Source: Euglena gracilis
Lineage: Eukaryota
DNA: 64,000 nucleotides
NCBI GenBank assembly: GCA_039621445.1
Contig: CP154954.1
Coordinates: 7,752,634-7,816,633, forward strand
Reading direction: 5' to 3'
In this document: piece by piece, positions 26,771-63,626 of the stretch
Position numbering within the stretch: the first letter of the stretch is position 1
How the letters are laid out: each line of letters opens with the position of its first letter
Position numbers and translations under genes: made by a program
The notes under the pieces: model-generated
The model's database searches: none
What the model saw: only the letters and a program-made list of their open reading frames with translations
What the model was told of the DNA's origin: nothing

Positions 26771-27048
26771 CAGGGGTTTTTTTTCAGTCTTGGACCCCCT
26801 CCACCCAGCACCAACCGGGGGGGGAGGGTGGGTGGGACACTTGGCCCCCCCGGGGGGGGGGGGGGGGGCTGGTGGGTTTATCTTTTTCGGCACCGAAGGC
26901 GCTGAAAATTTTGAAAAGGTGCTATTTTTAGCATTTTTGGCCATTTTCGGGCAAAAGTGGGTGGGACCCCCCCTTCCCCTGGGGGGCCACACCCAGGGGT
27001 GTGTGGGTGGGTGCCGACCCCCTCCCCCCAGTCTTAAAAAAACCCCTG
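26771..27048. mobile_element. hAT-type MITE (CAGGGGTTTTTTT TIR)
   Basis: TIR CAGGGGTTTTTTT/AAAAAAACCCCTG. TSD aacatgac/aacatggc (7/8). Related copy at ~56099-56323. Confidence 0.85.
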
Positions 27049-27327
27049 AACATGGCCTTGAAGATTGACAGCGAAGTTGCTTCTGCTTTGCAAGAATGTG
27101 GCTCGGGGCATTTTCCTGTGAGTCACATGGCTGGCCGACAGCTGGCCAACGGCGTGCTCCCCCTTGGTTGTTTTGAGTGGGTGGGTGGTTGACCCCCTGG
27201 GGGTGGGAGGGTTTTCAACAAAAAAAACGGGTGCGGGTTTATGCTGGGAAAAGTGCCCACGCCCACTCTCAAGGGGGATTCATTTGGTGAACCTGTGTCT
27301 CATCTCCTTTTGTTTTTCCCCCCAGGG

Positions 27328-28911
27328 ATGCAAGTCTCCAGCCCTCCCGCAGAAGGACGGCCCGGGGACTGGAAATGTCCACAATGTGCAAACCACAACT
27401 ATGCATCGAGGATTGTGTGCAATCGGTGTCACGGCCCGCGGCAGGTGGAAGGGGACACAACTGCACAGCCTGTGCGGGGCAACGGCACCTCTCGGCCCAG
27501 TCCTGGGGACTGGTATTGCCCCAACCCAGCTTGCTGCAACCTGAACTATGCCTCACGGCCACCCCATTGCTTAGAATATTTTTTTTCCATCAGTGAATCT
27601 TTTTCCAGATTTTTTTTTTGCAGGCTGTGAAAAAATTTTGTGATTTACAGGTCAGTCAGAGGGGTGCAGTCCCCCCCGTGTCCCCACCGTGACCCACAAT
27701 GGGACCTTGGCTGGCCAAGGGAAAATGCCCAAAAATGACCTATTTCACAGTTTTTTGGTCCCCCCCAAAGAAGGCCATTTCTCCCCCTGACCCCCCCCTC
27801 CAGTTCCCCGCTCCACCCCCAGAGAGATGTGGAATGCCGCCCAAAGCCCGCGGTACGTGACAAAAATTCTTCCTGCAAGTTGTTGGGATGTTTTGTTTCT
27901 GAACTTTGTTAGATTGAGGCTCCTGGGCAAGCAGTGGCTTATGGTCCCGACTCGTGTGCAACCGCTGCAAGACACCCCCAGCGAGTGCAGCATTATACCT
28001 ACAGCAGGCTGCAGTGATGTGGTGTGGGATTCCCTTTAAATTCCCTTTTCTGCACTGCTTTCGTGTAGGGGATTGGGTGTTCAGCTCCCAATGCTCCAAG
28101 GCTCCCGTCCCGGTGACTGGCTGTGCATGACGTGCCAGAACCACAACTATGCCAGCAGGACAGTGTGCAATCGGTGCCAAGCAGCCAAACCGGAAGTGGC
28201 AGACAGGCATTTTTTTGTGATGGCACCTTGAGGGGCTGAACTCCCCTGGACTGTGTGCATCTGACCTGCAGTTGCCTGCACTGGTTGAATGACGCTTCCT
28301 GTGGCAACACAATTTTGTTTTTTGCTTCCACCCCAGTGTTGGCGAAAGAAATACAAAAAGAAATGTTCTCGAAATTTCAAGAATGTGGCTGGAGTTTCTC
28401 TGGTTGGTTCACACTGTTCTCTTTTGCTTTGCATTTTTTTTAGCATTCACAATAGAAATTTCCCCAACCTACCCTCTACCCTGACCCTACCCTACCCTGC
28501 TGGGTTTGATGAATTGTGGGTGAAGCAGGATCATCATTGGCTTGATGAAACAAAAGGCCTGGTTGCAGCTCCTCTGTCATCTCTTGGGATGGCAGTGCCC
28601 GGCTTAGGGACAGAAGCCAAGCCGGCAGCCCCGAGTTTTCGGGCAGGCGACTGGATGTGCCCACAGTGTGGGGATCGCACCGTTGCTTTGAGTGTGACCC
28701 CTCCTGTTTGGCCCGGGAGGGGGGGGGTGCAGAGACAACCTGTAGGGGTTTCAAGATGGCCCGGCTATGCTCAAATCCCTGATTACCTCCCCCCCACGGG
28801 TCAGAAAATCCCCCCAAGCACTGGTGTTGTGGCAACCACAACTACGCCAGCCGCAAGAAGTGTAACCGGTGTAACCAGCCAAAAACAACGCCGGAGAGCT
28901 CAGAGGCATAG
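27328..28911 (+). CDS. Spliced gene for a ~191-aa protein with four RanBP2-type zinc fingers (likely RNA-binding). Exons 27328-27556, 27949-~27977, ~28067-28200, 28567-28669, 28831-28911
   Basis: Joined exons give four W-x-C-x2/4-C-x3-N-Y-A-S-R-x2-C-x2-C motifs: GDWKCPQCANHNYASRIVCNRC; GDWYCPNPACCNLNYASR|LVCNRC; GDWLCMTCQNHNYASRTVCNRC; GDWMCPQC|GNHNYASRKKCNRC. Exon phases add up to an in-frame TAG at 28909-28911. A pyrimidine tract plus CAG acceptor at 27301-27325 precedes the ATG, so upstream exons are possible. Junctions 2 and 4 are ambiguous by a few nt. Confidence 0.9.
27557..27948 (+). other. Nonconventional intron (zinc-finger gene)
   Basis: ccattgctt pairs with aagcagtgg. Removal restores YASR|LVCNRC. 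Flanking 8-mers ctcacggc/gtcccgac match 5/8. Confidence 0.75.
28201..28566 (+). other. Nonconventional intron (zinc-finger gene)
   Basis: agaCAGgcatttt ... aaaaggcCTGgttgc. Flanking 8-mers gtggcaga/gttgcagc match 6/8. Confidence 0.88.
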
Positions 28912-29948: not shown

Positions 29949-30077
29949 GGCGCCTGAATGGAAATCGTTAGACATAAACGGGCGCCTGAATGGAAATCGA
30001 CCGACATAAACGGGCGCCTGAATGGAAATCGACCGACATAAACGGGCGCCTGAATGGAAATCGACTGACATAAACGG
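29949..30077. repeat. 32-bp tandem repeat x4
   Basis: Unit GGCGCCTGAATGGAAATCGACCGACATAAACG. Confidence 0.9.
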
Positions 30078-31956: not shown

Positions 31957-32353
31957 CAGGCATTTGCTTAAGGACCCCGGGGGGGGGTACTGGCTAGCCA
32001 ATCGGCTAGACACTGGAAAAATTGGACTACCTAGGAGTCTACCTAGTCCGGGGGGTCCCCTGAACTGGAAAAAAAAATGGAAAAAAATTTCCTCCGGCGC
32101 TGTGCGCCAGAGGAAAAATGAGGTTTTTAATAGGTTTTTGGCTGATTTTGTTCCAAAAATTCCCAAAAATGGCCAAAAACGGGTATTTTTGGCCATTTTT
32201 GGGGGTCTCAAATTTTTTTTCCACTAGCTAGCCCTGTTAGCAGACCCCCCCCGGGGGGGTCTGCTAGAAATCCCAGTAGCCAAATTTGGACTAGCTGCAG
32301 TCCAGCCCCCCCCCCCCCCGGGGGGGTACTGCAATCCAGAAAGCAAATGCCTG
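31957..32353. mobile_element. hAT-type MITE (CAGGCATTTGCTT TIR) nested in another repeat
   Basis: TSD gaccagtc/gaccggtc. The empty site of the same host repeat is present at ~36400-36425. Confidence 0.9.
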
Positions 32354-35300: not shown

Positions 35301-36802
35301 GGGGGGGTAATTTTTTGGGCTTTGGCTGCAAAATTCTGCCATTATATTGAAAATCCGATGGGGAGAGGTGTTCTTTTGCCAAAAGTGGCCCAAAATGGGC
35401 ATTCCCCCCCCCAGTTTTTGCATATTCACCCCCGATTTGGGGGTTCTGGAGCCATTTAAGTGGGTTTTGATTGTGTTGGGGTGGTTTGGACAAAAATTTT
35501 TTTCACGGGGGGCTGAGATCTCCAGAAAGGGGGGGGGGGTAGTGCAAAAAAAATGGTGGTCGGGCCGACCAGGTCGGGCCGACCACCACAAGGACGACCA
35601 CCGGAAATCCGCTCGGGGCCCACTTTGAGGGGGGGGTGAGGGTACATGCGCGCCTGGCCCTGGGTCGGTTACCACCCCAGAGGGATTTTGTTATTGGAGG
35701 GCGGGGGGGGGGGCAGGGGGGTGTGGGGGGGGGGGGCAGCCCCCCCCCCCCCCTAGACGACCAAGGGCGCCGAAGGCGCCTTAGGACTGTTTGTTTACGG
35801 TGCGCGTGGCATTACATGCGCACCTGGCCCTGGGTCGGTTACCCCCCAGAGGATGTTGTTGTTGGAGGGCGGGGGAGGTGCAGGAGGGGGGGGGCCGGCA
35901 GCCCCCCCGCTAAGACGCCTTAGGACTTTTTCCGACTTAGGACTTGACTGTTTGTTTACGGTGCGCGTGGTATTACATACGTGCCTGGCCCTTGGGTCGG
36001 TTACCCCCCCCCCCCCCCCGGAGGGGATTTTGTTAGTGGAGGGCGGGGGGGGGGGGGGGGGTGCCCCCCCCCGCTAGACGACCAAGGGCGCCTAAGGCAA
36101 CTTAGGACTGTTTTGTTTACGGTGTGCGTGGTATTACATGCGCGCCTGATCCTGGGTCGGTTACCCCCGGAGGGGATTTTGTTATTGGAGGGCGGGGGGG
36201 GGGGGGCGGCAGCCCCCCCGCCAGACGACCAAGGGCGCCAAAGGCGCCTTAGGACTGTTTTGTTTATGGTGCGTGTGGTATTATGCGCGCCTGGCCCTGG
36301 TAGCATCGGTTTGCAGTACAACGGGAGGTTTTGCATTACATCCCAATGGGGGGGGGCTTAAAATTTTTCTGAAGGGGGGTGGTCGAAATTTTGGTGGTTG
36401 CTAGCGACCAGTCGCTCCGACCACCAATGGTCGGTCGACCATGACCAACGGTCGCTAGCGACCACCAAAAGTTCCACGGCCAATTTCCCGCAATGAGCCT
36501 CTTTTTTCAACTTGTCATCCCTTTCAGTCTTTCAAGCTGCGAGCGGCGAAGTGATGGAGTGAACAAAGTGATGTTGATTTCGATAGCAGCGGACTTTGCC
36601 TCATTAACCCCGCAGTGGCTAAAGTGTGCCTCTCGGATGACCATTCACCAAAGTGAACCTGCTTTCATCTCCCACTGCTCTCACTGTCCGAACACTCCTT
36701 TTCATCCCATTTTGACCTTGTTTGTTCTTGGGTTGTAGACACCGAGGAAAACAGGGAAGGAATATTGCCTTCGGATGAACTTGCTCAATCCCAAGTTAAC
36801 CC

Positions 36803-37240
36803 CAGGGTTCGATATAAGGAGGGCGTACATGGTTTAGGTGGGGGGGTGTCCTCCCCTTCCCCCCCCCCTCCTTGCCCGCAGGGGGGGGGCCGGACCCCCC
36901 CCCCCCCCACCTGCAAGGGGGGTCCGGACCGACCCTCGGGGGCAAAAATTGACCCCCCCCAAAAAGGGTCAATTTTTTCCTCCGGCGCTTCGCGCCGAAA
37001 ATTTTTTGCATTTTTGGCACATTTTTGCCCAAAAAGTGCCCAAAATGGCACTTTTGGTCGTTTTGGGGGGTCAAAAATTTTCGGCCCGGCGCTTCGCGCC
37101 GGGCCGAAATTCGGCCACCCTGACCGCGCACCTGTTTAGGTGGGGGGGGGGGGGTGTCCCCCCCCCCCCCCCCCCCCTCCTGGCCCGCAGGGGGGGGTCC
37201 GGCCCACCCCCCCCCCCACCTGTCCTTATATCGAACCCTG
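36803..37240. mobile_element. hAT-type MITE (CAGGGTTCGATATAAG TIR)
   Basis: Perfect TIR and perfect 8-bp TSD GTTAACCC. Same family as 47459-47886. Confidence 0.93.
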
Positions 37241-40106
37241 GTTAACCCCCAAGAGCAATCGACCCCAAAAGTACCGCTCAAGCTTCCCCCTGCTCACAAA
37301 TCCGCAGCCCTTGATTGGAGTGTAAGGTAATAGAAGCATTTGTGCGCTTTTGCGGACCGCCGCCTCCAGCGGCGGGGGGTGCGCTTCTACTTGGACCCTG
37401 CCTGCACGATTTTTTTTCTATTGATTTCCTTTAGAAAACCCATCAAAATGGGGGGTGCGCTTGTAGCGGACCGCTGCCTTTGGTGGCGGGGGCTGCGCTT
37501 TTGTTTGGACCCTGCGCTTGTAGCGGCCCCGCGCTTCTATTAGGGGGGAGGGTCACCCCTCCCCTGTGTCCAGTGAACATCCCCTTGCCCAAGAAGGTTT
37601 GAAGGTTTGGCACCTCTCCTCCCAAAGAATGCAAGTATGTCTGTGGGAGTGCTCTCACCCAGCAAGGAACACCCTCCTCGGACCACGTTCAGTAAACTTG
37701 GCCATGGAATCTTGGGGCCAACCTGGTCGGGCCGTGGCCACTGAACGGGGAGGGGGGGAGACATATCATTCCTCTCATACTCATGTTTGTCCAATCAGGG
37801 TGGGAAACAATTGTGGCCCTGAGAGGCCTGAGAGGATTGGCCAGGATGGTGGTTGGATTGGAGTTTTTGTCTGGTTTGAACACCCAGGATTCAGAAGGGG
37901 TGGTACCATGCATAGCATCAGGAAAGGACTTGTGCTCCATCGTGTGTGGGACGCGCATTTGCCTCTCTGGACGTAAAATTCAATCGCAGGTGTGTCTGGG
38001 CAGAGATTTTTTTTTTAAGTTTTGTGAGCCGGGGAGGGGGATGGGATTGGGTCCCGGATGAGCCTCCTCGCCCCCCAGAGGTGGGTTTTTTTTTCTATTT
38101 TCGTTGCGAAGCGCTGAAAATTTTTTGGTCCTCCAAAATTGACCCCCCAAAGTGGGCCCCCCCCCCCCCGAGCCCCACCCCCCCCCCCAGGCGGTGGGTG
38201 GGTGGGTCCCCCCCATATCCTAAAAAACCTCTGGTGTGGGGTATTTCTTCTCTGGAAAGTTTATTTCAAAGTTCAAAACCATATTATTGTTCATTGATAT
38301 TTTTTTTGATTGTGTTCCACATATGGCAAACAGCATATATGATTTGCACCCCACCCCACCTCCCATTTGATTGATTTTTCTTGAATATTTGATTTGGGGT
38401 TCTCCCCCCCAAAGGAGGAGGGGGATCACTGATTGGAAAATGTTTTTACAAGCGATTTTCAAACAATCTCCTCTGATGATGTTGGGGAACTTTTTGGATT
38501 TGGTTTTAAATTGATGCCGCGATTAATTATTATCAAATTTCAGTGATATTTAATTAATAATTATTTTTAACTAATTTATAATAGCGGGACGTTGATTTAA
38601 TGAAGGCGGAGCATCCCACAGCAGATCATCAAGCGAAGTCCGTAGTGTCTATGTCTGACCTGCCCTCCGCTCCGATTGCTCTTTTGTAACACCTTTGCGG
38701 AGTTTGGTATGAAGAGGACCCTCTAAATAGGGTCATTGTTTCTCTTTTTTGTCCAGAAAAGACAAAGGCTTAAACAGAAAAAAGGAAGAAGTTTTTTTTT
38801 TGCAGGATTTTGCCAAAAAAAGTGCCCAAGAATGCATGCATTTCGGCAAAGCCCTGAACGTCCACCGGGGGAGCGCATGTGCTTGCGCATGTGCTTGGCG
38901 GGCACTTGGTGGCAAAGTACACAAGGTAAGACCCGCCAATCTCCCGGACAAAAGGGCCAGAAGCGGACAACAGTGCCAGGCCAGAAGAGGGGATAAAGGG
39001 CACCAAAAAAAAACAGCTGCAGTGCACACAGGGAGCGCAGTTTGTCTGGGGTGGGGGAGAATATTGGGAATTGGGCTGTCCAGTTCAATTCTGGTTGAAG
39101 TTTTTGCGTATTGGCAACATTCTGTTTTTGCATCAGGTCCCGGGATAATCAGAAAAAAGTTTCAGCAAAAACCCAGCCAAAAAATGATTTTTTGGTCATG
39201 CTACCGTTTAGGCGGCAATGCCCCCCCCCCCCCAGCCCGCTAGTTGGGCGGACCCACTTTTACTGTTATTATGTACCCTCTATTCTTGGAACGAATCAAC
39301 CAACAGAGTTTTGATACACATTTTGACAGGGTTTTTGGAACAAAAATGACATTTTATTTGAAACTTTTTTGACATAATTCACAAAACAGCCCAGCTGCAC
39401 CAAATGCCATTTCACCCTCTCAAATCCTCTGTCAAAATTTAAAGAAAGGCGGCAACTTGGTGGGCTCTACTTCTGGTAAACCCCCCCCAATTAGAAGCCC
39501 CCGGGGGGTCACTCTGCGGAAAACCCGGGGGGGGGGGGCTTCTAATTGGGTACCCTTTGTCTAAAGGAAAAACTTCGGCCAGCGGTCGATCCGGGGATCG
39601 AACGGGGTCCAAGTTTAAAAAATTGCAAGACGCATTTATTCTAGTTTTTGGGTGGATAGGCCATGTTTCAAGGATACTAGATATCACTTTTGTTCCCAAT
39701 GTCGACCTTTTTTCGTGGAGAATTTTCGAGTGTTTCACCATTTTCGGAAATTTTTTCGTCAAATTTCCCCCCGGCTTTGCCGGGGGGGGGGGGCTGTTAT
39801 TTGGATTTTTGGCGGGAAACCTGAGGGGGGGGGCTTCTATTTGGGGGGGGGGTTGTTATTTGGGGGGGGGCTTCTAATTGGGGGGGGTTATGTCTCTATT
39901 ACTAGTATTGCCATCAGTATGGCAGTCTCACACCAGTGGGCCCCACGGCGGGGCGGGGGGGGGGGGCGTCACCCACTCTACATCATGCAAATGGGACTGA
40001 TGAGCGATTTTGGCCCATGGCTGGGGGAATTCCGGTCGTTTCTGCTGCGTGGAGGTGGGTGCGGCATATCCTCATGAAAAGGATTGGGGTTAGGATTAAG
40101 ATTAGC

Positions 40107-42619: not shown

Positions 42620-42738
42620 CAGGGGTTTTCAAAGCCGGAAGGGAGCTGACCCCCCCCCCCCCCTCCAGCCAGCCAGCACCTTTTTCCAGCCGGCCCGCGG
42701 GGCCCCCCCCCCCCCCGGAGTTCTGAAGAAAACCCCTG
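42620..42738. mobile_element. 119-bp hAT-type MITE
   Basis: TIR CAGGGGTTTTC/GAAAACCCCTG. TSD ataactag/ataactaa. Confidence 0.85.
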
Positions 42739-42780
42739 ATAACTAATAATCTTGATGATCACAATGAAGCATTTTCCTCG

Positions 42781-42991: not shown

Positions 42992-43269
42992 CAGGCCATT
43001 GTTTAAGGGTTCGCAGTACCCCCTTGGGGGGGGGGGGCTGGACTGCAGCTAGTCCAAATTTGGCTAGTGGAAATTCTAGTGGACTCCAGGGGGGGGGGAG
43101 TCCGCTAGCAGGGCCAGCTAGTGGAAAAATTTTCCTCCAGAAGCACCGGATTTTTTCATTCACAAAACTTGCCAAAAAATGCCCATTGTTGGTCATTGTT
43201 AGATTTTTGGAACAAAATCAGCCAAAAAACATATTTATAACCTCATTTTCACCTCGGCAGCGCCGGAGA

Positions 43270-43300
<31 letters not shown>

Positions 43301-43433
43301 GTGTTTTTATTTTTTTTTTTTGCTTTTTTTTTTTTCTTGTCCGGTTGGGGGGACGCCCCAGACCGGGGGAGGAAGTCTATTTTTTCCAGTGTCTAACAAA
43401 ATGGCTACCCTGGGGTCTTTAAGCAATGGCCTG
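42992..43433. mobile_element. hAT-type MITE (CAGGCCATTGTTTAA TIR)
   Basis: Perfect 8-bp TSD ATGGGAAG. Body homologous to 31957-32353 and 63170-63626. Confidence 0.92.
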
Positions 43434-50800: not shown

Positions 50801-53800
50801 GAAAGCACACACAATTCTCAGAATTGTCCTTCTCAGATCAAACATTTCTACCGCCCAAGCCGAAATTGGAAACACAATCACTCTTACCCCCCCCCCCCCT
50901 AGTCGTATGACCACCCCTCATTTATGACCACCCCCCGGTCACAGGTTGCAGGTCATGGGGGTGTTATGACCACCCCCCCCCCCCCGGTCACAGGTTGCAG
51001 GTTGCGAAAAATTTAACACCACCTTACCTATGACCGCCACCACATTTATGACCACCCCCCGGTCACAGGTTGCAGGTTATGGGGGTGTTATGACCACCCC
51101 CCCCCCCCCCCGGTCACAGGTTGCAGGAACCCGGTCATACGACTAGGGGGGGGGGTAGGTGGCCGGATTCGCATTTAAGCTTTTTTGTGTTGGTTTGCGC
51201 ATTTCCGCAAATTACCAAAACTTTTTTATATCGGCTGTGTGGCTCTGGGGGGTCTGAAAACACAGCAACAAGAGAGTGCAAAAAATGATCGAAATTCTGT
51301 TTTTGGCGGTGTGACCCCTGGGACTTTGGTGAGAAATGGTGTTTTTGGGGGTCCAGAAATGGGCTCCGCACGTCGAAACCCGCGGGACCTTCCCCCCCCC
51401 CTCATGGGAGTGAAAAAAAACGCAAAACAGCAACACAGGAATGGGACCTTTACTGCTGTTGTTGCTCCTATCCAGGCAAGGACAGGACAGCCACCAGATC
51501 CCACCGGATCCCACCGGATCTGCAGATTCGGTGACCATTGGTACAGATCTGGTAACAAAACCAGATGATTTGGGCCAAAAACACCTGAAAATGACCAACA
51601 TTCACTCAGAATGCTGGTTCATTGCAATTTTATAATCGATGGGCGCAGGTGTTTTTCTCTCATTCAGTCATTTTTGGTTGTGCCTGATTCTTGCCACGTG
51701 GTGCGATGCACGCGGTGCCGGCAGGGATTTTTTTTTCGGCGCCTCCCCCCCTCCCCCCGGGGTCCAAGTTTTAAAAACCCCCTGGGTGCCGCACGCGGTG
51801 TGAAACACGCGGTGCGGAAGCCACCCACCCACCCCCTGGGGGGGGGGGGCTCAGGGGACCCTTGTCTCGTAATGATTGAATATTTGTGTGCGAAAGGACA
51901 TTGTGCAAGTGGTTAACGATTGTATCACCTTGCTACTGAGCTAAAATGCAATAAATCAATAAAAAAACAACAGACAAGCAAAAAATCCAGACGAAAGCAA
52001 GTCATTTGAAATCCAGTAAAGTGTTGGAAGAATTACAGCAAATTTCTGTAGGAGGCAACATGCAATGGTCCGTTTGACAATTTTACGAAGCCAGAGGTTC
52101 GATGCGTCGCTTTGAGGCCAAAGTTTGTCTGGGGAAGATATTCCCTCAAAGTTGTTCTTCTCTTTCCGAAGAGACATCATCCACTTTCCATCCACCGTTT
52201 GATCAATGATGCGCATTAATGGTTTCAACTTGGGAGAAGGGCATGTTGCAATGCTTTTTTTTTGAACCCCCAAGGCTCCTGCCACAAACGCCAGCACAGA
52301 ATTGAAAATCTGGTGGTGTGAGCAGCCCCCACTCCCCACCCCCTCCCCATTCCTTGTTTTTCCCACGGTGCCGATTGTTAGGTGAAGGTGTTCTTTCGAT
52401 GCCGAAGAATTCCCCCCCCCCCCATGAGGTGGATCGGGGGAGTGTCCCCCACTTCCTGGTGGGTGTGGGTTGAACCCACAGCCATGCCAACGTTGGTCGA
52501 CCCGCCCACCCTCTTGGTGGCAGTGCTCATTGAAACGGGTGGGGACGCCAGTGGGAGGGGAATACCCTCTTATCTCAATTGGATGGGGAACCGGCGGGGA
52601 AAGGAGTTGCTTGGCGCGGACCCTTGTGGTGGCTGGGGTGGTCAACACCCTCTCCGACACGATGCTCACGGGCAGGCAGCTTTTTCGCCAGAGGTAGGTG
52701 GGCCACAGGACCAAAGGTTCATAGGTTCATTCAACACCTGTGGTGACCCTCCGGGGGGGATGGGTGGGTTTTTGAGATTGGGTGGGTGGGTGGGTTGGGA
52801 CCGCTGGACCCCCCCCCCCCCAGGGGAGGGGGTGTCCTGTGCCATGGGTCAGATTTTGGCCCGGCCAAAGGCCAGGCCAAACAAATTTTCGGGGGTTTTC
52901 GGCCGATTTTGGCTGGATTTTGGGTGGGTGGGTCAATGGTTGACCCCCCCCCCCCCTGGGGGGTTGTGGGTGGGGGGGTTTTGAAAACAGTGGGTGGGCG
53001 GGTTTGGGCCCAGGGTCCCTCGCGGGGGGGGGGTCACCAAGGTAATCCATGAATCTGACCCTCCAGATTCAATGACGCCATTGGGCTAAAATTGCCTGTG
53101 TGCAGGACTGTGCTACATCTCAGTGGTGTGGCACCTCGTGGGCTGCATCTTGATCATTGCGCTCATGAACTGCTATGCTCCAACCCACAAGTCGGTGTCG
53201 TATGAGAGTACAACAATTCTACTGGTTTCACACCCAAGCAGCAACTTCATTGGCTCCAAAACGGGCCTTTGCTTGAGAACTCCATTGGGGTCCACTCCAA
53301 GGGGGTCCATTGTCTGATATGTGCATTTGCTTTGCATTTTGCAGGTTTTTTGTTACAATGTCACAAGCACAAGCCACACGCACCATCCACTCTCGACATC
53401 CGCATGGTTACTATCCAATTTTGAAATCATGAATGCATTCACCATTTTACCATTATGACAAAAAAATCTTTCAGAAAAATTCTCTGCGAACCAGAGGGAA
53501 GGCTGCACCCCCAGCGCAGTCCTTACAAAAAATTCCGTCCCAGCATCTTCAATGGAAAATCCACAAAAAAGGTGCAAAAAATGGTCATATTCTGGAGGAA
53601 AAAAATGGGTCGATTTTGGGGGAGCACTTCTTTCTGGCGCACCTGGACCTTCGCCCATCCACCCAAGACGGCAGAAAAAGTGTTTTTTTTACTTTTTTTA
53701 TATTTCCGACACCGTCCGACGCCCGGAGAAGCCATTGGCTGTCCCGGCGGTGCTTAAAGGGAGGTCCTCTACGGGACTTCCCTGTGCACTCCTGGGGGAT

Positions 53801-56800
53801 GCTTTGGGAAGGTAAGTGGGGAGGGGCAGTGCTATGGCACACTTTGGCGGCGATGCCTTAAAATTGATCCCTCCCTGGAGGGTGTGCCTGCAATGGGCAG
53901 GCACCCGGGAGCACAAGGACTTGTTGGTTGTTGAAAAAGTTGTAAAAAAGAATCCTGCAAGTCCCCTTGCTGGGCGTCCTGTTGCGAAATTCAATTAAAA
54001 ATAATACAACAGATATAGAACCTTGTAATATAAATAAAAAAGAATAATAATGTAAATATCTCATAAAAATAAAATAAAAACTTATGAATAAAAATAAATT
54101 GTAAAGAAATGCAGAACGAGACCGCATGCTTTGATTCATGGGTTTGGAGATCACCTTCAAAAACGTCCAATGTCCTGGGTAGAGTTATGAGAGTTGTGAG
54201 TTTCCTCTGCTACGTGAGAGGCTGTGTCGTAGCCTGTGAATGTGGTGGAGGCAGCAAGCAAGCCAATCAGCCCAACATAAATATTTGATGGACACAAGCA
54301 GAAACACTTCAAAAAAAATTGTGTCTGGTGACAAAAACTGTTCGGATAACTTTATAAAAAAACAAATCAATATTTCATTAGAATAACATGAGTATGAGTC
54401 CATGAGTATGTGAAGAGAATTCCGAAATGTCCATCTATGACCAAGCTCATCAATTTCATATGTAATTCGCAATTTGGGATTTGGGAGTGCGTTTTGACAT
54501 TGAACTCATTTCCCACACTTGATTGTCCCCATTGCAGGCTGGGTGGTTCAACTGGTTCCTAAAGACCCCCCTCCCATCCAACACAGATGATGGCACAAAT
54601 GATCCAACTACCTGGGGGCCCCTTCCCAAACGATCCTGTTTGACCCCACCCCAAAGACTGAGCCCCTCCAAATACCCAAAATATGAACTAATTTGATGTT
54701 TAAGAACCCAACTGTCCAACAAAAGTTTCAAAAAATCATTGAATCCACGTTTTGAGCACATTTTACAACGATCCAATTGCAAGTTTTTTTGTCAATGTTA
54801 GAACCCCCCCTGAAGTTGTTGGTCCAGGTCAAAACAATTCAGGCGGTGCAGTTTCCGGGGGGGGGGGATTCTGAACCCCCCTTCCCCACTCTTACGCAGC
54901 CGAATTCACACTTAAGCTTTTTTGTGGGCTTTTGTGGGCTCTTTTTGCACCACCATGCAAATGAACACAAAGAAAATTATTGTGGCCTTGGGGACTTTGA
55001 AGTCACGAGGGCGAAAAATGAGCAAATTCCTGTTTTTGGGGAAACAGGGACCTGGGGGTTTCGTAAAAAAACGGCAATGCGCGCCTTAGTGCCCATGCAC
55101 AAAGAAAAAACCCTTAAGTGCGAATTCGGCCGCCTGAGCCATTGCTGGTGTCCATTCTATTCCCAATGATCCACCCCCATTGTGGCAATCCTGGCAACCA
55201 CCAGATTGCTGAAATCCAACCGTTCTGTTCCACCCCCCTTGCCATGATCGGTTCGGTGATCAACTGCCTTGTGCTGGCCAGGCTTCTCTTAAGCCCCACC
55301 ATGTGATGTGCAGCCGCTCAGGAAACTGTTGTGCACACAGTACGCCACCAGAAAAGTTTTTTTGATTAGGTGCCCTGGTGCCATGTTTTGCTGAGAATTG
55401 TTTCTCTTTGCTCCTCCCACAGGGTTTTTTGCATCAACGACGCCATATATCTGTTTTCGGGACCCAGGGGCTGATTGCTGGGGGCTGGGCGAGAAATTTG
55501 GGCTGCTGGCAACCTGGGGATGAAACCCCTGGCCATCGCGCTAAAACAAGCACAGAGCAGCATCGTCTTGTATTCTGATTTCGAAATTGTTTGGGTCTTT
55601 TGCTTTTTTTTCTTCGATTTTCGGGTATTTCTCCCCTTTTGGCACCCCAAACACAACCCTGTGACAAAGGTAGATTCCAACTGTGCTTGCCTTTCTGCCA
55701 GTTAACCCGCCGGGATCGTTCCAGGTGGGGCTGCACTCAGCGAAACGGAAGCCTGGGGGCCAGGGGTCATCTTCATCCTGGGCCTGAACTTCGCCATCCA
55801 GGATATGGAGCAGGGCGTTCGTCGCTGGTGTCGAAGGCCCCCCAGCCCCAGGGCCGGGTTCAATATGAGGGCAGGATGTCCAGGATCAAGGAGGGGGGCT
55901 TCCTTGGCTGCTTTTTTTTTTTCAACTCGGTTGACCCCCTGGGGAAGTGTCGCGCCAGGAGATTGCCTTTTTTTTGTAATTGGCAGTTTTGGGGGAGTTT
56001 TCCGTGGTTTTTTTTTTAGATGGGTTGACCCTGGGTTGAGCTCAGTTCCAGCTGGGAGACTCCCAGGGGTGGGGTTGTTAAGTGATGCCATGCCCCCCCA
56101 GGGGTTTTTTTTAGTTGTGGACCCCCGGGGAGGGGGGTTGGATATACTTTTCGGCGCAGAAGGCGCCGAAATTTTTTGAAAAGTGCTATTTTTAGCATTT
56201 TTCGCAATTTTTCGGCCATTTTTTTGTGGGTCCCCTGGGACCCCCCCCCCCCCCCCCCGGGCCCCCCAGGGGGTGGATGGGTGGGGGGGCCCCCCTCCCC
56301 CCCGGTCTTAAGAAAAACCCCTGGGGGGCCGCCAGGCATTACATTAAACCCTACTGGGGAGAGGAGGGGGTCCAGCCAGCAGCTTTTCCAGCCTCTGAGC
56401 TGGACCCCCCCCCCCCCCAGGGGTCGGCAAGCGACGCCCTGGTGCAGATGACCTCACGAATTCGGACAATGCGGAGGGCGCTGCCAGCACCCTCTGGGTC
56501 TCCCTCATGGGGGTCCCCCTCGCCGTGCTGTGCAACGTCATCACGTTCGTGGCCATCGAGTGCAGTAATTGTGCCAACCTTACTTCTGCCGCTCGCATGG
56601 TGTGCGGCCGATGTACTGTTGTGTTTTTCCCAGTCAGCTTTTATGATTGCAGTTCTGGTGATGAAAGCATGTCGAACCACGAAGTTGGATCACGTCCGGG
56701 GCAGAGGGAAAAGCTGGCATCCTTTTGGCCCCAGCGACATAGAAATCGGAAGGCAAATGTTTGCTATTAAAAGGCAAATGTTTGCTTTGCAGTATGTGGC

Positions 56801-59800
56801 CAGCCTCGCCCTCCTGTGCCATCCACTGTTTTTGCAGTTTATTTTTTGCAATTTTTTTTTGCTCCAGGCAGCTGTTCTGTGCCCCGCTGCAGGTCTATTC
56901 TTTCTCCCGCGACGGCGCCTTGCCGCTGTCCCGGTTCTGGTACCACGTCAATCGGCGGACGGGCTCCCCCGTCCGGGCCATCGTCCTGTGTGTCGTCATC
57001 TCCTTCCTCGTCGGTGTGCCTGGCCTCGCCAACGACACCGTGCTCGGCGCGCTGTTTTCTCTAACGGCCACCGGTCTGTGCTGGGGTCTGCTGGCTGCCT
57101 CGGCTGCTGACATTGTGCGACATATGGACAGATATTATATATGTATATATATCTGCCCATACGACAGATATATGACAGATGGAAGAATGCTGGCTGCTCT
57201 GGGGGCAGCATTTTTCCAGATTGCTTGCAAATCTTTGCTTTTCAGTTCCAGTCAGAAATGAGCCCTTTGCAAAGTCGCCGTGTTCTTTGCGCCGGAGCCC
57301 AGTCCTCGTTGGCCTCCTACATCATCGCCATCTTTCTGCGAATCACGGTGAGCCGCCCAGAGGTTTCTTTTCCGGTAATGTTCAGTAGGAAGAGGAGGCA
57401 AAGAAACCCCTGGAGCGGGCACACGTTCGTACCAGCTGAGTTCAACCTCAGCCAGGGGTTGCCACCTTGAGCGGTGAGCATTTAATCATTTAGTCACTGG
57501 CTGACCCAGCAGTGATTGGGACTGGCTTTTCAGAGTGAACGACTGGTTTCTGGCCCTAATCCCACCCCTGGGGGGTTGGGAAAAAACCACTGAAGTCACC
57601 CTGCACCGAAGGCACCAGGAAAAAACCTTTTTGGGTTGTTTTTTTTTTTTCACATTTTCGCTCATTTTCCCCTCGGCTTCCAGAGTGTCTTCCAAGGAAT
57701 AAAAGACTGACTGGTTTTTGGAAGAGTGGAACCCGGGGGTCAGTGATGGGAAATTGCATGGCTGTGAGTGGATGCTCCACGCTCCTGGTCCCAGAAAATT
57801 TGGAATCCTCACTTTTGGTTACCTGGAGCCTCCAGGGAGGCTCCCTGGAGGCTGGTTACCTGAGCCTCCCTGGTTACCCGAGGAGCCTCCCTGGAGCCTC
57901 CGGCAGGTAACCGATTTTGTACACAGGCCATGTTCGACACTCCATTTCTGCATCACAGCACCACAGCACAGAGCACGCACACCTGTCTCTTGTGACCTCA
58001 ATGGCACCTGCATGGCAATTGCATGTGGACAGTTTTGCGCATTTCTGGAGAAGTCCGTCCCTGTGGCAGTGCTTTCCGTTTGAAAACATCGCATTCATGT
58101 CATCATTCATTTATTTATATGCTTACACACACAAATCAAGTGTCGGTTGCATTGTGCGCATCCTCTTTCGCAGCTTCTTTTGTCTTGCAATGGCCACTGA
58201 GGCGCCTGCTGCCAAGCGGGTTCGGATGGCCGACGGACAGGTGTGTGCTGCGGAAAGGGTGGTGGGGGCAGACGTTGCCTCGCCTCAAGACATAGCACAA
58301 TTGGGGTGCCATTGTCGGTGTGGGCCAGTGAAACTGTTGTGGTGTTTGTGGCTATATCACCAGCAACAATGGCCACCTGTGGCGACACGTTGAAGGGTTT
58401 CTTATCCATGTTTCAAAAAAATGGGAACCGCCTTGGACCTCGACACCACCCTGCACCTGGACGTGCGTCATCTGATGGTCCATGAAACACACACTGGTCT
58501 GCTGTAGCCTGAGCACATCAAGAACGTCTGGACCTTCTATTGCGGTGCCAGTGCTGATTATTTGCCTTTCGTCAAACTCCTGCAGACCACTCCCCAGGGA
58601 CAAACATCTGTGAGTCCTTCCATGCGCAACTGTGCGAGCATCATGGACTGACGGGTCGGAAGGACTTGGACAAAAACACCATGTGGTTGGACCTGATCGT
58701 GCGCTCGTGGAATACTCCATCTTGGAGTTCCCAATGACTCCGGCTGCCATGGACACATGAGGCCCTGAACCACAACAGGTGCAACGTCTCTGCACGGTAC
58801 GGGGGGGGAGTCTGGTCAATTTTGCCAACCTTGTCATGGGAAGATTCTGGAACATTCCACGCTGGATCGCCATTTCCAAGCTGGGAAACGCCCGCACTGC
58901 AGCATGGGTGACCCATGTGCTGCGGGCTCTGCTGAAGGACATGCATCGTACAGCTCTGCAGAAAGGAACAACCACAGAAGCCCTGCTGGTTAATTTCAGC
59001 CAATTGACCCGGGAGGAGACCACGGCCGAAGACGCGGACTCCGAGGGGACTGATGGCTCTGAATCCATTGTGTCCCTACCAAACTAATACCTCACACCTA
59101 TATACGCTATACACACCCTATCTTCTTCCGGTCACAGGAAACTCAACGGTGCAGTCTCCTGCACAATTGCGTGCCACTTGCGTCGGTGGAGTTTGATATG
59201 TCCCCCCAGCCAGTGTTTGCAACCCCAACAGACAACGCCCCAATACTTCCCCTCCGGAAGCGCCGAAGGCTGCGGGATTTGGTGTTACAGGACGTGATAC
59301 AACCACCAGCTCAACACACTGACAGTGTGCAGGAACAGCCACCCATCCCCCCTCCCAAGAGTGACCAGAAGAAGCGTAAGCAGAAGCGCCCCGTCAATGG
59401 CTCCGAGGTCTCCTTCAGCGGAGTCCATATCCATTGTCGAAATCGCGGTCGGGGGAGTTGCTCTCTGTGGGTGTTCATTTCATTCAAAGCATTAACACAG
59501 GATGTATATGATGAAAGCATATGCACCGTCCGCCAATTTTTCGGTTTCATGACATGAAAGGCGAAGTCTGCTGCAGTTGCATCACACCGTTTACCTGTCG
59601 ACAGCTGACGCGTTGTTGGCCAAAATTTGTCCACACAAATGATTTTGTTATTGCGGAGCGGGGGGAGGGGGGGGTGAGGGGTAGGGGGGTTGGGGGAGCG
59701 AGGGAAAGGGGGGGGCCGCAGGCCCCCCCTTTCCACCGCTCCCCTCCCCCCCCCTCCCTGGTGAGCAACTGCTGATTCATGCATTCCGAGTCTGCAAGCA

Positions 59801-62689
59801 CCATGCATTGCATCACTGCACTCCACCTGTCCTACTGTCGGCCTGTGTACAAAACTGGTTACCTGAGCCTCCTTGGAGCCTCCCTGGAGCCTCCCTCCGG
59901 GGAGGCTCAGGGAGGCTGGTTACCTACGTACTTAAGTACTAAGTACTTTAGTACCTAAGCCTCCTTGGAGGCTCCCTGGAGCGGAGCCTCCCTGGAGGCT
60001 GGTTACCTGAGCCTCCCTGGGGCCTCCGGCAGGTAACCTCCTCGGCAGAATTCCATTTTTGCGGTAGACCCGGGAGCGTAGCACTCCAATTTCAGGTGAG
60101 AAGGGTGTGGATGGCTTGGGAAGCGGTGGGGCTGGCCTTTGTGCTGTTCCCCTCCAAATGGCCATACAACAAGTATTTAGTGGCATATTTCCAGAGCCTC
60201 GGAGGGGGGTCAGCGGGGGGGGGGGGGTCCAGCCAGCCTGCTGGTTCCCCCCCCCTGGACCCCCATCGACAAATTTAATTCCTGCCAGCGGAATGTCAAC
60301 ATAGTTTTCCGCTTTGCTGGGTTCTAAAATAGAAATGTCCCGAGGTTTGGTAAATATTTTTCGGCTGGAGGATATGCAAGTTGCATAAGTTGCATGATTC
60401 AAATTTTTGAATTTTTGCATTTTTTTGCATGATTTGCATTTTTTTTTTGCCGAATGAGGTGCTTTGTTCCGTACCCCCCCCCCCGGGCACTTGACCGGAG
60501 GGGTCAGTCACTGGTCTGGCTGGTTCCCCTCTTCTGTGCTTTTCAGCTGTTCAACTCCTGCCTCTGGAAGATGGGGTGTTCCCATGGGGGTGATATCTGT
60601 GGCATGGTCGTTGTTCATGCTCGTGGTGATGTGCTTGCCCCAAGCGACCCCCATAACAGGGGATTCACTCAACCAGGCATTTGTGCTGATTTATCATCTA
60701 CTCTTCCCACCACATAATGTCTTCACCTCCCTTCTCGGCTCGATGATGTCGATGATGTCAGTGTGATCCCTCCCCCCAGATGATCCCCCCCAATTAATTC
60801 CCCCCCCCCCCAAATGATACCTCCCCTTACAATTTCAACCGAAAAAATACCCCCCCCCCTAATTTCGGGTCTCAGATCTCGATTTTCGCCCCAACAAATG
60901 TGGTTGAAAATCAGTATTCACGGCATCAAATGACAAAAAAATGGGGTTTTGTGGACCATCAGGCCACAAAAAATGTCAGCTTTTTTTGCGAAAAAGTGCA
61001 AAAAAATATGTCCAAAAAAGGGTGTTTTTTGGGTATTTGTTTTGGCTTTAAATATTTTCGAAGAAATTTTCGAAATGTTTGAAGAAATAACCCCCCTCCC
61101 CAAATAAATGCCCCCCCCCCCCCCCTCAGGTGGGGACTTCGAGCGAAAAAACCCGGGATGCATACCAGTGGATAGTGGACCATTTGAACAAAGAAAGTGA
61201 AAAGGGATGGGATCAGAGGGCTTGGAATCAAATATGCCGACAAGGGAACAAACTTTTTTGTGTCTTTCACAGAAAGCCACACCAGGGGGTTGCTTAAAAA
61301 AAATTGACCCACCCCGCGAGGGGGTCCAGCCAGCCAGCAGCCTTTTTCCAGCCCCGGACCCCCTCCCATCAACGATATTTATTTATTTCCAGCTGCCTGA
61401 AGGGCGGCTGGACGGTAAATGGATTCGCTTTCGGGGGCCAAAAATGGACGAAAATGGGTCGGGAAAGGGTGGGCCAGGCAAATTTTGGGGTCAACAAATC
61501 TATTTTTTTTGCATCATTGGCAGTTTTTTTTGACATTTTTGCAAATTTCGATTTTTTTGCTACCTGGTTCGACCCCGGGTTGGGCCCAGCTCCAGTCCGG
61601 GGGTTTCCCCCTCCCCCTCCCTGGGTCAGTCAGCAGCCTTTTTCCAGCCAGCCCAAATTTTCCAGCCTCTGAGCTGGTCCCGGGGGGGGGGGGTCGTTAA
61701 GCAACGCCCTGAGCCACACCTTTGAAAGTTCAGGGGGGAAAAGATTCAATTTAACAACTGTACAAATCAATGGGGAGAAGTTGTGGTTTGCAATTTCTGT
61801 GTTTCATCACATTTGTCTTGTCACCCAGTGTTTGCAATACAAGCATTTTTGCACTCCCAAAATCAACTTTCTGTTTTTTGGTATGCCATAGAAATTCCAA
61901 GCATTCCCAAGAGTGTCCACCCTCTTGCCCTGAAATGGTGTCTCTTCGGGATTTTCACAAAAAAGATCAGCATCTGCTCATCCTTCATTTTGGAGGTTGA
62001 CGGGCATCGTCCAGCACTTTTTGGAATCATTATTAATTAATTAATATTAATATTAATATTAATTAAGAATTAATATTCCACCCAAAAAAAGGAAAAATTT
62101 ACATTTACAAGTTTAAATTTTATTAGATTTAATTACGGTAAAAATTAAAGTTAACAAATTGGATTGCGCCAGGACTGGCCTGTGAAGCCAGGAGCAGGAA
62201 ATGCTTGCCCCCCAACTACTCCCCAGTGATGCTTGGAGCGATCCTGCTCGGCTCATGGGTGGCGTGGCTGGTGTCCGCCCGGAAATGGTTCAAGGGCATC
62301 CCTGATGGGCTGCAGTCGAGCACTGATTTGTCCCCGGGTGTGCGTCCCTCCGTTCTCCGAATCCTGCTTTCCTCATAAATTTGTCAGCAGGAATCCCAAC
62401 ATCACGTTTTATTTTGCCATTTTGGGGGCATTTTTTTTTGCACCTGGAGCTTCCAGGCCAAATGTGGAGGCCATTTTGCTGATGGGTTGGGGTTGGACTT
62501 CAACGTAAACCCTGTCTGGAGTTCATCATATGCCTATGAGCTTTCAGGTTGTCTCAGAAAATGTTTTTTTCTGCATTTTTATTGTTTCGTTCTGCAGTTG
62601 ATGGTGACAACACCGAGGCTAACTGCATGCCAGAAAGAGATCCGGAAAGTGATGAGATTGTTGATAAAGTGACAAATAAGCAGGTCTGA
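44820..62689 (+). CDS. Spliced gene for an APC-superfamily amino-acid permease (ACT family, GABA/choline-permease-like). Exons ~44820-44985, 48029-48071, 49765-49815, 50060-50109, 50397-50556, 52619-52669, 53104-53231, [one exon not found], ~55232-55275, ~55762-55807, 56447-56599, 56893-57077, 57308-57354, 57418-57449, 60566-60670, 62214-62337, 62598-62689
   Basis: Concatenation gives EDERRLAQLGYKQEYTRIFNTWTNFG...YSLQTGGPAVMLWSWVVIGVMTLFVVSSLAEICAAYPTMGALYFWAYRLGGPEWGPFSAWTAGWCNLLGQIGG...TSAARMVYSFSRDGALPLSRFWYHVNRRTGSPVRAI...FNLGRWGVPMG...CLPQATPITGDSLNYSPVMLG...VSARKWFKG. These are typical ACT-family motifs. Phases fit at every junction except a frameshift near 53204 and a missing segment after 53231. 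Confidence 0.9.
44986..48028 (+). other. Conventional GT-AG intron (permease)
   Basis: G|GTGTGT...ctctttcccaacAG|GA restores TGGPAV. Confidence 0.9.
47459..47886. mobile_element. hAT-type MITE (CAGGGTTTGATATAAG TIR)
   Basis: Perfect 8-bp TSD CCCCCAAG. Confidence 0.93.
48072..49764 (+). other. Nonconventional/intermediate intron (non-GT start, AG end)
   Basis: 5' ggcCAAatcattgcttg pairs with 3' caagcaatggcATGgccag. Removal restores GVM|TLF. Confidence 0.8.
49816..50059 (+). other. Nonconventional intron
   Basis: aacCAGggtttcatgg ... ccatgcagccCTGcccgc. Removal restores YPT|MGAL. Flanking 8-mers cccacaac/cccgcaat match 6/8. Confidence 0.9.
50110..50396 (+). other. Nonconventional/intermediate intron (possible GT start, non-AG end)
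   Basis: gtcCAGgatgtttt ... aaaacaatcCTGttgt. Removal restores EWG|PFS. Boundary ambiguous by 1 nt. Confidence 0.8.
50885..51157. mobile_element. TA-flanked MITE with internal tandem repeats
   Basis: TA-C(n)-TAGTCGTATGACC ... GGTCATACGACTA-G(n)-TA. Confidence 0.75.
51722..51784. mobile_element. 63-bp minimal hAT-type MITE
   Basis: CAGGGATTTTT...AAAAACCCCCTG. TSD ggtgccgg/ggtgccgc. Confidence 0.7.
52670..53103 (+). other. Nonconventional intron
   Basis: gggCAGgcagcttttt ... aaaattgcCTGtgtgc. Removal restores MLT|GLCYIS. Confidence 0.88.
55276..55761 (+). other. Nonconventional intron
   Basis: ggcCAGgcttc ... gaagcCTGggggcc (N6). Removal restores CLVL|GVIFILG. Confidence 0.8.
55808..56446 (+). 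other. Nonconventional intron that is a degenerate copy of the CAGGGCGTTGC MITE family
   Basis: gagCAGggcgttcg ... gcgacgccCTGgtgca. Removal restores IQDM|DDLTN. Its 3' ~70 nt match the right ends of the MITEs at 40875-41124 and 61283-61711. Confidence 0.88.
56600..56892 (+). other. Conventional GT-AG intron (permease)
   Basis: ATG|GTGTGC...cccgctgcAG|GTC restores SAARM|VYSFSRDG. Confidence 0.9.
57078..57307 (+). other. Nonconventional intron with swapped core pair (CTG...CAG) and GT start
   Basis: gtgCTGggg ... gagccCAGtcctc. Removal restores TATGL|LASY. Confidence 0.8.
57355..57417 (+). other. 63-nt in-frame nonconventional intron
   Basis: gccCAGaggtttcttt ... aaagaaacccCTGgagcg. Removal restores ITVSR|HTF. 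Flanking 8-mers gagccgcc/gagcgggc match 6/8. Confidence 0.85.
57450..60565 (+). other. Nonconventional intron (3.1 kb)
   Basis: agcCAGgggttg ... caactcCTGcctct. Removal restores EFNL|GRWG. Confidence 0.88.
60671..62213 (+). other. Nonconventional intron
   Basis: aacCAGgcattt ... aaatgcTTGcccccc. Removal restores DSL|NYSPV. AAC is repeated at both ends, so the junction can slide. Confidence 0.85.
61283..61711. mobile_element. hAT-type MITE (CAGGG(C/G)GTTGCTTAA TIR)
   Basis: Perfect 8-bp TSD AGCCACAC. Confidence 0.93.
62338..62597 (+). other. Conventional GT-AG intron before the last permease exon
   Basis: G|GTGTGC...tttcgttctgcAG|TT gives an in-frame acidic tail (VDGDNTE...NKQV*). Confidence 0.7.
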
Positions 62690-63169
62690 TGCTTTTTTGA
62701 AAGCGCAATTGCAAATGCGTCACTCTGCGTGTCGTTAGTCCCTGCTGTATGTGCATGTGTGCGCGTGCGTGCCTGCGTGCCTGCGTGCATGCATGTGTGT
62801 GTCTCCCAACAGGAGTTTATGTTAGTCACCTCCTCCCCAAGTTTCAGCTAGAGAGCTGAGGATGCACATTTTTGCTGGTTTGGCCTCCAGGGGACCTAAT
62901 TTGTTTGCTGATTTTTTGTATGCCTGCGCTGTCCCCCCCCCCCCAAAGGCACACCAATGCCCTCTCCCCCAAGGGATGGACAGACCCTTTCACATTGGGA
63001 TTTCCCCGCAGGTAGAATTATAAAATAAAAAGGATTACGGTTTGGGTTTGTTGCATGCAAATGCATTTTCTTCAAGGCCCTTTTCCCTCAAGCGCATTTC
63101 ACCCATGTTTCCCACATTTTTTTTGTGGGAACCCCCCCCCCCAATCAAACACACATGAAAAGTCAGGAA

Positions 63170-63626
63170 CAGGCTTTTGCTTAAGGGATTGCAGTACCCC
63201 CCCCCCCCCCCGGGGGGGGGGGGGCTGGACTGCAGCTAGTCCAAATTTGGCTAGTGGGTTTTCTAGCAGACCCCCCCCCCGGGGGGGGGTCTGCTAGCAG
63301 GGCTAGCTAGTGGGAAAAATTTTTCCAGTGACCGGCGCGAAGCGCCGAAAATTTTTTTTGGGACCCCCAAAAATGCCAAAAAATGCCCGTTTTTGGCCAT
63401 TTTTGGGAATTTTTTGAACAAAATCAGCCAAAAACCTGTAAAAAACCTCATTTTTCCTCTGGCGCGCAGCGCCGGAGGAAAATTTTTTTTCCAGTCCGGG
63501 GGACCCCCGGACCACCCCCCCCCCCCCCCGAGGGGATGGGGGGGGGTCTAGCTAGTCCACTTTTTCCAGTGTCTAGCCGATTGGCTAGCCAGTACCCCCC
63601 CCCGGGGGTCCTTAAGCAAAAGCCTG
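63170..63626. mobile_element. hAT-type MITE (CAGGCTTTTGCTTAAGG TIR)
   Basis: Perfect 17-bp TIR and perfect 8-bp TSD GTCAGGAA. Confidence 0.93.

Follow-up and report, generated by a model that had tools for sequence, protein, structure and literature searches.

Where the nonconventional introns of euglenids come from, and why their splice junctions keep odd, fixed spacers, is a question that has stood since the 1990s. It is raised by a 64-kb window of Euglena gracilis nuclear DNA that contains free MITEs (miniature inverted-repeat transposable elements) as well as two genes analysed for introns, one for a zinc-finger protein and one for an amino-acid permease. The nonconventional intron consensus comes from Milanowski et al. 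2014 (PMC3935182), and the splicing code 5'-N3CDG.../...CH'GN5-6|R was set by knock-ins, which showed where the cuts fall and that CAG/CTG, pairing and spacers suffice, with synthetic 50-bp introns being spliced (Nomura et al. 2025, PMC12501133); papers given here with a PMC number are cited from excerpts of their text. That code, N3-CDG...CH'G-N5-6|R, is what a CAG...CTG MITE with an 8-bp target-site duplication (TSD) supplies. The best explanation of the whole, and one that we consider probable, is that MITEs with CAGG ends and 8-bp TSDs match the splicing geometry and gave most of the non-GT-AG introns here.

The whole window was scanned for CAG...CTG pairs spaced 60-2500 bp whose 12-nt ends form inverted repeats with at most 2 mismatches, which gave 173 pairs. 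Six of these have flanks that agree at 8/8, five within 26771-63626 and one outside that range at 15114-16741, and all six begin CAGG and end CCTG. The chance expectation for such flanks, calculated by hand, is about 0.01 pairs (173 x 0.3^8). Another five pairs agree at 7/8, four in range (26771-27048, 31957-32353, 42620-42738, 51722-51784) and one outside at 8578-9610, the last being dubious, as a piece of the element's own arm recurs in its flank. Nearly all the other pairs score 0-5, as chance predicts, and three score 6, two of which are real introns. A sequence-only reading of this DNA had listed five MITEs with perfect TSDs and four more at 7/8; the positions, CAG starts, CTG ends and 8-mers given for the five are all verified, and the scan finds exactly four at 7/8 in the same range. 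The 8-mers vary among copies of one family and are therefore target duplications, not element sequence. The elements are real multi-copy, non-coding MITEs bearing terminal inverted repeats (TIRs).

They make up four families with copies at unrelated sites, two copies in A, three in B, three in C, and two or three in D. Family A is 36803-37240 (438 bp, ends CAGGGTTCGATATAAGGA / TCCTTATATCGAACCCTG, perfect TSD GTTAACCC at 36795-36802 and 37241-37248) together with 47459-47886 (428 bp, perfect TSD CCCCCAAG), the two being 88% identical over the full length of the first. The copies of family B are 74-76% identical: 42992-43433 (442 bp, end CAGGCCATTG(T/C)TTAA, perfect TSD ATGGGAAG), 63170-63626 (457 bp, end CAGGCTTTTGCTTAAGG, perfect TSD GTCAGGAA) and 31957-32353 (397 bp, TSD 7/8, GACCAGTC / GACCGGTC), which is inverted relative to 63170 and aligns to its reverse strand at 76% over 468 columns. 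Family C has one copy with a perfect TSD, AGCCACAC, at 61283-61711 (429 bp, 3' end ...GTCGTTAAGCAACGCCCTG), a short copy at 40875-41124 (250 bp, flanks only 5/8) that is the reference copy of repeat-finder family D7, and a copy at 43530-43959 (430 bp, flanks TGTGGGGG / GTTGGAGG, 5/8) found by the TIR profile described below. Within the last, 43555-43609 is 93% identical to 61313-61367 (repeat-finder family D16). Family D is 26771-27048 (278 bp, end CAGGGGTTTTTTT, TSD 7/8, AACATGAC / AACATGGC), which sits 280 bp upstream of the zinc-finger gene ATG, 56099-56323 (225 bp, flanks only 3/8), which is 73% identical to it over 203 columns, and in part the mini-MITE 42620-42738 (119 bp, end CAGGGGTTTTC, TSD 7/8, ATAACTAG / ATAACTAA). 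The predicted RNA fold of this mini-MITE has a stem that begins exactly at CAG...CTG, leaving the flanks unpaired. A second mini-MITE of 63 bp lies at 51722-51784 (TSD 7/8, GGTGCCGG / GGTGCCGC). The sixth perfect TSD, GGGGTGGT, flanks a larger relative of the MITEs, the 1.6-kb element at 15114-16741 with CAGGGTTGGGC ends, whose interior holds an array of 24-bp tandem repeats at 15689-16514.

The consensus of 24 free MITE ends is CAGGGnTTTGCTTAAGGAC, in which CAGG is invariant. What each element with a perfect TSD offers in sequence is N3 (TSD positions 6-8)-CAG, 12-18 bp of pairing, and CTG-N5 (TSD positions 1-5). TSD position 6, the prospective exon start, is a purine in five of the six perfect TSDs and in 7/10 overall. 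Permease introns contain four of the free copies, on the transcribed strand: 47459 within the GT-AG intron 44986-48028, 51722 within 50557-52618, 56099 nested within 55808-56446, and 61283 within 60671-62213. Near the tips, on their inner side, most copies also have long runs of G facing long runs of C (for example 36836-36920, 37138-37228 and 63196-63224), because of which the hairpin reaches well past the TIR; such runs also make up much of the window's intergenic and intronic DNA.

Elements of the hAT superfamily have 8-bp TSDs, short TIRs beginning YARNG, and a target preference for T at position 2 and A at position 7. For the hAT-type affiliation that had been read from the sequence, the support is the TSD length and the CAGG end. 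The short TIRs begin CAGGG in families A, C and D, which resembles the YARNG of hAT MITEs of the Ac/Ds type. Unlike these, family B begins CAGGC, the target preference is weak (T at position 2 in 4/10 TSDs, A at position 7 in 5/10), and no transposase was found in the window to which its elements could be tied. We use hAT-like as a label of geometry only. Ds elements are said to be spliced out of maize transcripts, an observation attributed to Giroux in 1994. No paper on Euglena with hAT as a word was found in the full-text literature searched.

Intron junctions were placed at the protein level, by matching exon translations to transcript-derived proteins. For the permease gene, a script enumerated every donor/acceptor pair reproducing the protein for each neighbouring exon pair, and for the zinc-finger gene the junctions were read by hand; flank identities, control pairings, probabilities and the coordinates of the zinc-finger gene are hand counts from the printed sequence. 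Because many introns slide over short repeats, the protein fixes the length of an intron and not its exact junction. Our metric is what is left of the length of an intron once the stretch spanned by its terminal pairing is subtracted, in other words both spacers summed, which junction sliding does not affect. Nineteen introns were resolved, of which four are GT-AG (44986-48028, 56600-56892, 62338-62597, 28022-28068). The remaining 15 have no GT/GC-AG option in the range of junctions compatible with the protein, and the joined exons reproduce the transcript-derived proteins.

The spacer sum is 8 in nine of the 15 non-GT-AG introns, 9 in two (55276-55761 and 60671-62213) and 7 in one (50110-50396). 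All 12 of these fitting introns have a 3-nt 5' spacer inside the protein-compatible range, and in the N3 register, counted by hand, the downstream exon begins with a purine in 12/12. The sequence-only reading had put the paired core of most such introns 3 nt inside the 5' junction and 5, occasionally 6, nt inside the 3' junction, and at the protein level this is right. Terminal inverted repeats of 9-13 nt were observed. The introns are like published euglenid nonconventional introns: their borders are non-GT-AG, CAG is at +4 to +6 and CTG at -8 to -6, the motif is backed by pairing, and the downstream exon starts with a purine. The strict published motif is present in 8/15, to be compared with 61.2% of the nonconventional introns of E. 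agilis that meet the code (PMC12501133), and three more pair less strictly without a change of register (CAA/TTG, CA/TG, CAG/TTG).

Both genes and all their introns described here are on the plus strand. Three of the nine +8 introns have similar flanks. Intron 3 of the zinc-finger gene, 28201-28566 in the N3 register (366 nt), is an element at 28204-28561 (358 bp, CAGGCATTTTTTT...AAAAGGCCTG) plus 8 nt, with flanking 8-mers GTGGCAGA / GTTGCAGC that agree at 6/8. The permease intron 49816-50059 (244 nt) is an element at 49819-50054 (236 bp, CAGGGTTTCATGG...CCATGCAGCCCTG) plus 8 nt, with flanks CCCACAAC / CCCGCAAT, also 6/8. The short permease intron 57355-57417 (63 nt) has its core at 57358-57412 (CAGAGGTTTCTTT...AAAGAAACCCCTG) plus 8 nt, flanks GAGCCGCC / GAGCGGGC at 6/8, and a predicted fold that closes at CAG...CTG. 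The other six are permease introns: 48072-49764 (1693 nt; a CA/TG pair at +4,+5 / -7,-6 that fits 3+5; flanks 4/8), 55808-56446 (639 nt; core 55811-56441; flanks 3/8; composite), 52670-53103 (434 nt; CAG at 52673, CTG end 53098; 3/8), 50557-52618 (2062 nt; core CAAGC...GCTTG; 3/8), 57078-57307 (230 nt; covariant core CTGGG...CCCAG; 2/8) and 57450-60565 (3116 nt; CAG at 57453, CTG end 60560; 2/8). The borders of 48072-49764 are GG...AG or GC...GG depending on the slide, and neither compatible position gives GT/GC-AG. The two +9 introns, both 3+6, are 55276-55761 (486 nt, core 55279-55755 of 477 bp) and 60671-62213 (1543 nt, core CAGGCATTT...AAATGCTTG, junction repeat CAAC). The +7 intron 50110-50396 (287 nt) is an element at 50113-50392 and only 7 nt, as 3+4 or 2+5.

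If an intron is an inserted MITE, the 8-mer before its core would be a copy of the 8-mer after it, and this was compared in the nine +8 introns. The matches are 6, 6, 6, 4, 3, 3, 3, 2 and 2, in all 35/72 (49%). As a control, eight of the nine introns (all except 48072-49764) had their left 8-mers matched against right 8-mers shifted cyclically, in two steps, from one intron to the next, giving 43/128 matches (34%) and no pair above 4/8. The preference of both junctions for pyrimidine|purine lifts this background over 25%. The probability of at least three scores of 6/8 or better among eight introns at p = 0.335 per base is about 4e-4, and about 7e-4 with all nine. Of the claim that 3+5 nt equals one TSD, then, the core plus 8 nt stands in 9/15 introns and TSD-like 8-mers in three of nine; for this window, the proposed excess of flank identity over swapped pairs is found in those three introns, and the other six are at background. 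Furthermore, the MITE scan picked up three intron cores blind as TIR elements, 28204-28561, 49819-50054 and 55279-55755, in each of which the intron is the element plus 8 or 9 nt.

The clearest, and single clear, case of a family shared by an intron and free MITEs is the permease intron 55808-56446. Its 3' arm (about 56366-56441) aligns to family C with 64 identities in 76 columns (about 84%), shares with it the exact 15-mer AGCCTCTGAGCTGGA, and has the same ...CGCCCTG terminus. The repeat finder aligns 56404-56445 with 41087-41128 at 86% identity over 42 nt (family D7), and the intron's 5' terminus, CAGGGCGTT, is a family C end, the family D element at 56099-56323 being nested between. When ends of free elements were aligned with those of introns, 42 in all, every one started with CA, at least 90% continued with GG, and a T-rich stretch followed. 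A TIR profile of about 15 bits was built from the 24 free MITE ends by sequence only. Of the 24 ends it was trained on it found 22, and outside the training set it hit three further MITE-like ends (19653, 43530, 43959). The first of these, at 19653-19673, is a family-D-type end, CAGGGTTTTTTTTTAAGTCTTG, scoring 11.5 bits, with no obvious partner end, and is probably a truncated copy. On the expectation that introns would group with free MITEs, 55808-56446 alone clearly joins a family, C, and the profile finds none.

Several results weigh against deriving the introns from MITEs. At E<=10 the profile matched 0/24 ends in the set of 12 fitting introns, and apart from one intron the likeness between introns and MITEs is confined to the first 7-13 nt, CAGG and the T-rich stretch. 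Intron 55276-55761 has ends that resemble reversed family B over only about 20-30 nt, and a full-length alignment of its interior to family B is unconvincing. In six of the nine +8 introns the flanks agree no better than background (2-4 of 8), which is expected of old insertions and equally of unrelated introns. Besides the intron at +7, three of the 15 non-GT-AG introns do not fit at all. Intron 1 of the zinc-finger gene, 27559-27950 (392 nt), has no CAG/CTG at +4/-8, and its fold is a long interrupted helix spanning both junctions; intron 4 of the same gene, 28670-28830 (161 nt), has a junction repeat TGTGG, an offset sum of at least 10 and no 3+5 terminal helix; and intron 1 of the permease gene, 44494-44819 (326 nt), slides over 44489-44493 and has a helix AAGGTTGC...GCAACCTT with an offset sum of 10, which becomes 8 only with a C.A mispair counted. 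Pfam recognised no hAT transposase domain, neither a dimerisation domain nor a BED finger, in 557 open reading frames (ORFs) of 26-64 kb and 10 long ORFs of 1-26 kb. Protein colinearity is what places the junctions, the 3/5 split itself being taken from print, and the sample is two genes, one of them a permease copy with a wrong-strand exon and a 7-nt shortfall.

Two poorly or loosely fitting introns have family-B-like end motifs (GGCCA...CATTGCTT / AAGCA.TGGC) a few nt off their junctions, seen by eye at 27556-27575 with 27929-27941 and at 48070-48090 with 49746-49764. These could be decayed MITE ends whose splice sites have shifted.

Some of these results would also be produced by coincidence or convergence, in which the splicing spacers and the 8-bp TSD have separate causes, CAGG is a transposase site, and the junction repeats reflect Y|R preference or chance. 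Such an origin accounts for mismatched pairs being already 34% identical, not 25%, through shared junction composition, for the six introns at background, and for the TIR profile matching no intron end; the code, moreover, tolerates 6 nt, which is unequal to a TSD (PMC12501133). We nevertheless think it unlikely, as it leaves to chance three introns that score 6/8 in exactly the predicted register, one intron with 76 columns of MITE homology and the same terminal CCCTG, and three intron cores found blind as TIR elements. Also in print is a new intron with 8-nt repeats: in 2016, the group of Milanowski described a newly gained gapC intron in one E. agilis strain, flanked by eight-nucleotide direct repeats (PMC4770533).

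The authors who saw that gapC repeat suggested break repair as its source (PMC4770533), and a second alternative is accordingly that double-strand-break repair captured filler DNA, with the direct repeats being repair microhomology and the MITEs unrelated. Microhomology has no fixed length, whereas the window has free, multi-copy elements with inverted ends and exactly 8 bp in six cases, and an intron shares sequence with the free elements, so we give this explanation little credence. The reverse direction, with the "MITEs" being excised introns that re-enter the genome via an RNA or circle intermediate, has in its favor the stated full-length circular release of nonconventional introns (PMC11282704) and the four free copies inside transcribed introns, but it is the hardest to believe, given that an intron copy would bring 3+5 nt of its old site and that the free copies are flanked by perfect duplications of differing 8-mers, the mark of a staggered target cut.

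Insertion of MITEs is the best available reading of the introns, and it is partly supported. As we picture it, the families of the window would be non-autonomous cut-and-paste DNA transposons with inverted ends starting CAGG and an 8-bp target duplication, presumably mobilized by a transposase of hAT type. A MITE landing in an exon would leave a target ABCDEFGH on both sides. The nonconventional splicing machinery would recognise the hairpin closed by CAG...CTG, with one cut 3 nt upstream of CAG and the other 5 nt, sometimes 6, downstream of CTG. Excision would then take FGH, the element and ABCDE, rejoining the remaining ABCDE to FGH and restoring the pre-insertion mRNA. The two spacers would be the two halves of the TSD, free copies should, judging from their sequence, be spliceable once transcribed, and most non-GT-AG introns of both genes would be such insertions or their decayed descendants.

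A broader joint reading can be formulated, in which splicing is a precise RNA-level excision matched to one transposon class. Every CAGG MITE with an 8-bp duplication would be born a scar-free intron in either orientation, the 3- and 5-nt spacers being the parts of the duplication; ongoing activity would have made most of the approximately 70% nonconventional introns of Euglena genomes; and nested MITEs would be excised as introns within introns. Taken together, these propositions are possible, and we lean slightly against their all being true.

The zinc-finger gene, at 27328-28911, encodes a four-finger RanBP2-type protein of 205 aa in five exons, 27328-27558, 27951-28022, 28070-28198/28201, 28565/28568-28669 and 28831-28908, followed by the stop codon. 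The joined exons give the protein of EG_transcript_18157 with one substitution, and a zinc-finger ORF matches at 98%. Immediately before its ATG, at 27300-27330, there is by eye a pyrimidine run and AG resembling a spliced-leader acceptor; if it is one, the MITE 26771-27048 looks to be in the outron. The permease gene (APC family), at 44473-62686, has at least 19 exon pieces that match EG_transcript_5049 (561 aa) at 98-100%; the window did not yield the final 24 aa. Both transcript names belong to a transcriptome set of E. gracilis, so the window is nuclear DNA of this species or of a very close relative. The exon for aa 227-263 (54178-54291, within 53233-55228) is a 100% match on the minus strand, unlike the other exons, which points to a local inversion of this copy or else to an error of assembly, and the two introns flanking it were excluded from the analysis. 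At 53203-53206, VLT (aa 215-217) has no counterpart, and the flanking exon pieces are only 2 nt apart, a frame-shifting shortfall of 7 nt. This and the inverted exon suggest a pseudogene copy or a sequence error or misassembly.

Exons were sought with Pfam among the 557 stop-free ORFs of at least 45 aa that remained of the 591 overlapping 26001-64000 after removal of 34 of low complexity. The RanBP2 zinc fingers and the amino-acid permease are the only real families among them; none of the region's ten longest ORFs fell into a Pfam family, filtering ORFs by composition (GC3/periodicity) for exon finding gave nothing usable, and Rfam gave 0 matches. Upstream, two mutually similar long ORFs on the minus strand, 16692-17486 and 17943-19034 (265 and 364 aa), have no Pfam family, and by eye they look like the Cys/His motif and nuclease-like tail of a retroelement. 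About 190 degenerate CCTAAC units (telomere-type TTAGGG on the other strand, 71% matches) form an interstitial array at 25052-26200, which ends about 570 bp upstream of the MITE at 26771 and about 1.1 kb upstream of the zinc-finger ATG.

The conceptual core of this proposal is largely anticipated in print, and its novelty is smaller than the sequence-only reading supposed. Milanowski et al. 2014 proposed MITE-like insertion as an intron source, noting that up to then euglenids had no identified transposable element (PMC3935182). A 2024 review from the same group calls the intron ends TIRs and the junction repeats TSD-like, its excerpted text giving no length and having "8 bp" 0 times (PMC11282704), and the MITE-origin view also holds that new insertions occur within species (Milanowski 2014; PMC11282704). 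Short junction repeats were reported in 84.4% of introns, with MITE-like elements named as a possible source (PMC12501133), and "duplication" and "hAT" occur 0 times in the excerpted text of that paper. The MITE idea was repeated in a 2025 diplonemid paper (PMC12621601), and the excerpted text of the chromosome-level E. gracilis genome paper has no mention of MITEs, hAT or introns. The open full-text literature, supplements and subscription papers aside, yielded no free Euglena MITE families, no 8-bp TSD of such families, and no argument that 3+5 is a TSD; the supplementary junction lists and sliding data of PMC4770533, PMC3935182 and PMC12501133 may already contain the 8-nt signal.

What differs here from the nonconventional-intron papers, in the text available of which free elements are not described and the spacers are not linked to a TSD (PMC12501133, PMC3935182), is therefore not the introns themselves. 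The difference from the MITE-origin hypothesis as published is that free multi-copy MITEs with exact 8-bp TSDs lie beside introns of equal geometry. Close to this case are the introners of Micromonas, Aureococcus and dinoflagellates, which are likewise non-autonomous DNA transposons, carry TIRs and TSDs, and turn into introns when they insert; the splice junction divides their TSD, a part falling to either side, and the reading frame is thereby preserved (PMC11282704). Those introns are spliceosomal, with GT/AG supplied or co-opted and TSDs of 3-5 bp (PMC11282704), whereas here the introns lack GT-AG, follow a nonconventional code that measures a hairpin, and would have an 8-bp TSD split 3+5.

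The MITE idea has been repeated for more than 10 years without actual free elements being pointed out, in the literature searched. If the reading of 3+5 as one 8-bp TSD is true genome-wide, the hypothesis becomes countable, through flank identity, an 8-nt limit on sliding, shared families and empty sites, and the published EgGSL2 knock-in assay would be a ready experimental design. The splicing code would then be explained as a consequence of transposon geometry, and Euglena would have a non-spliceosomal pathway through which exons can be colonised by a DNA transposon almost free of cost.

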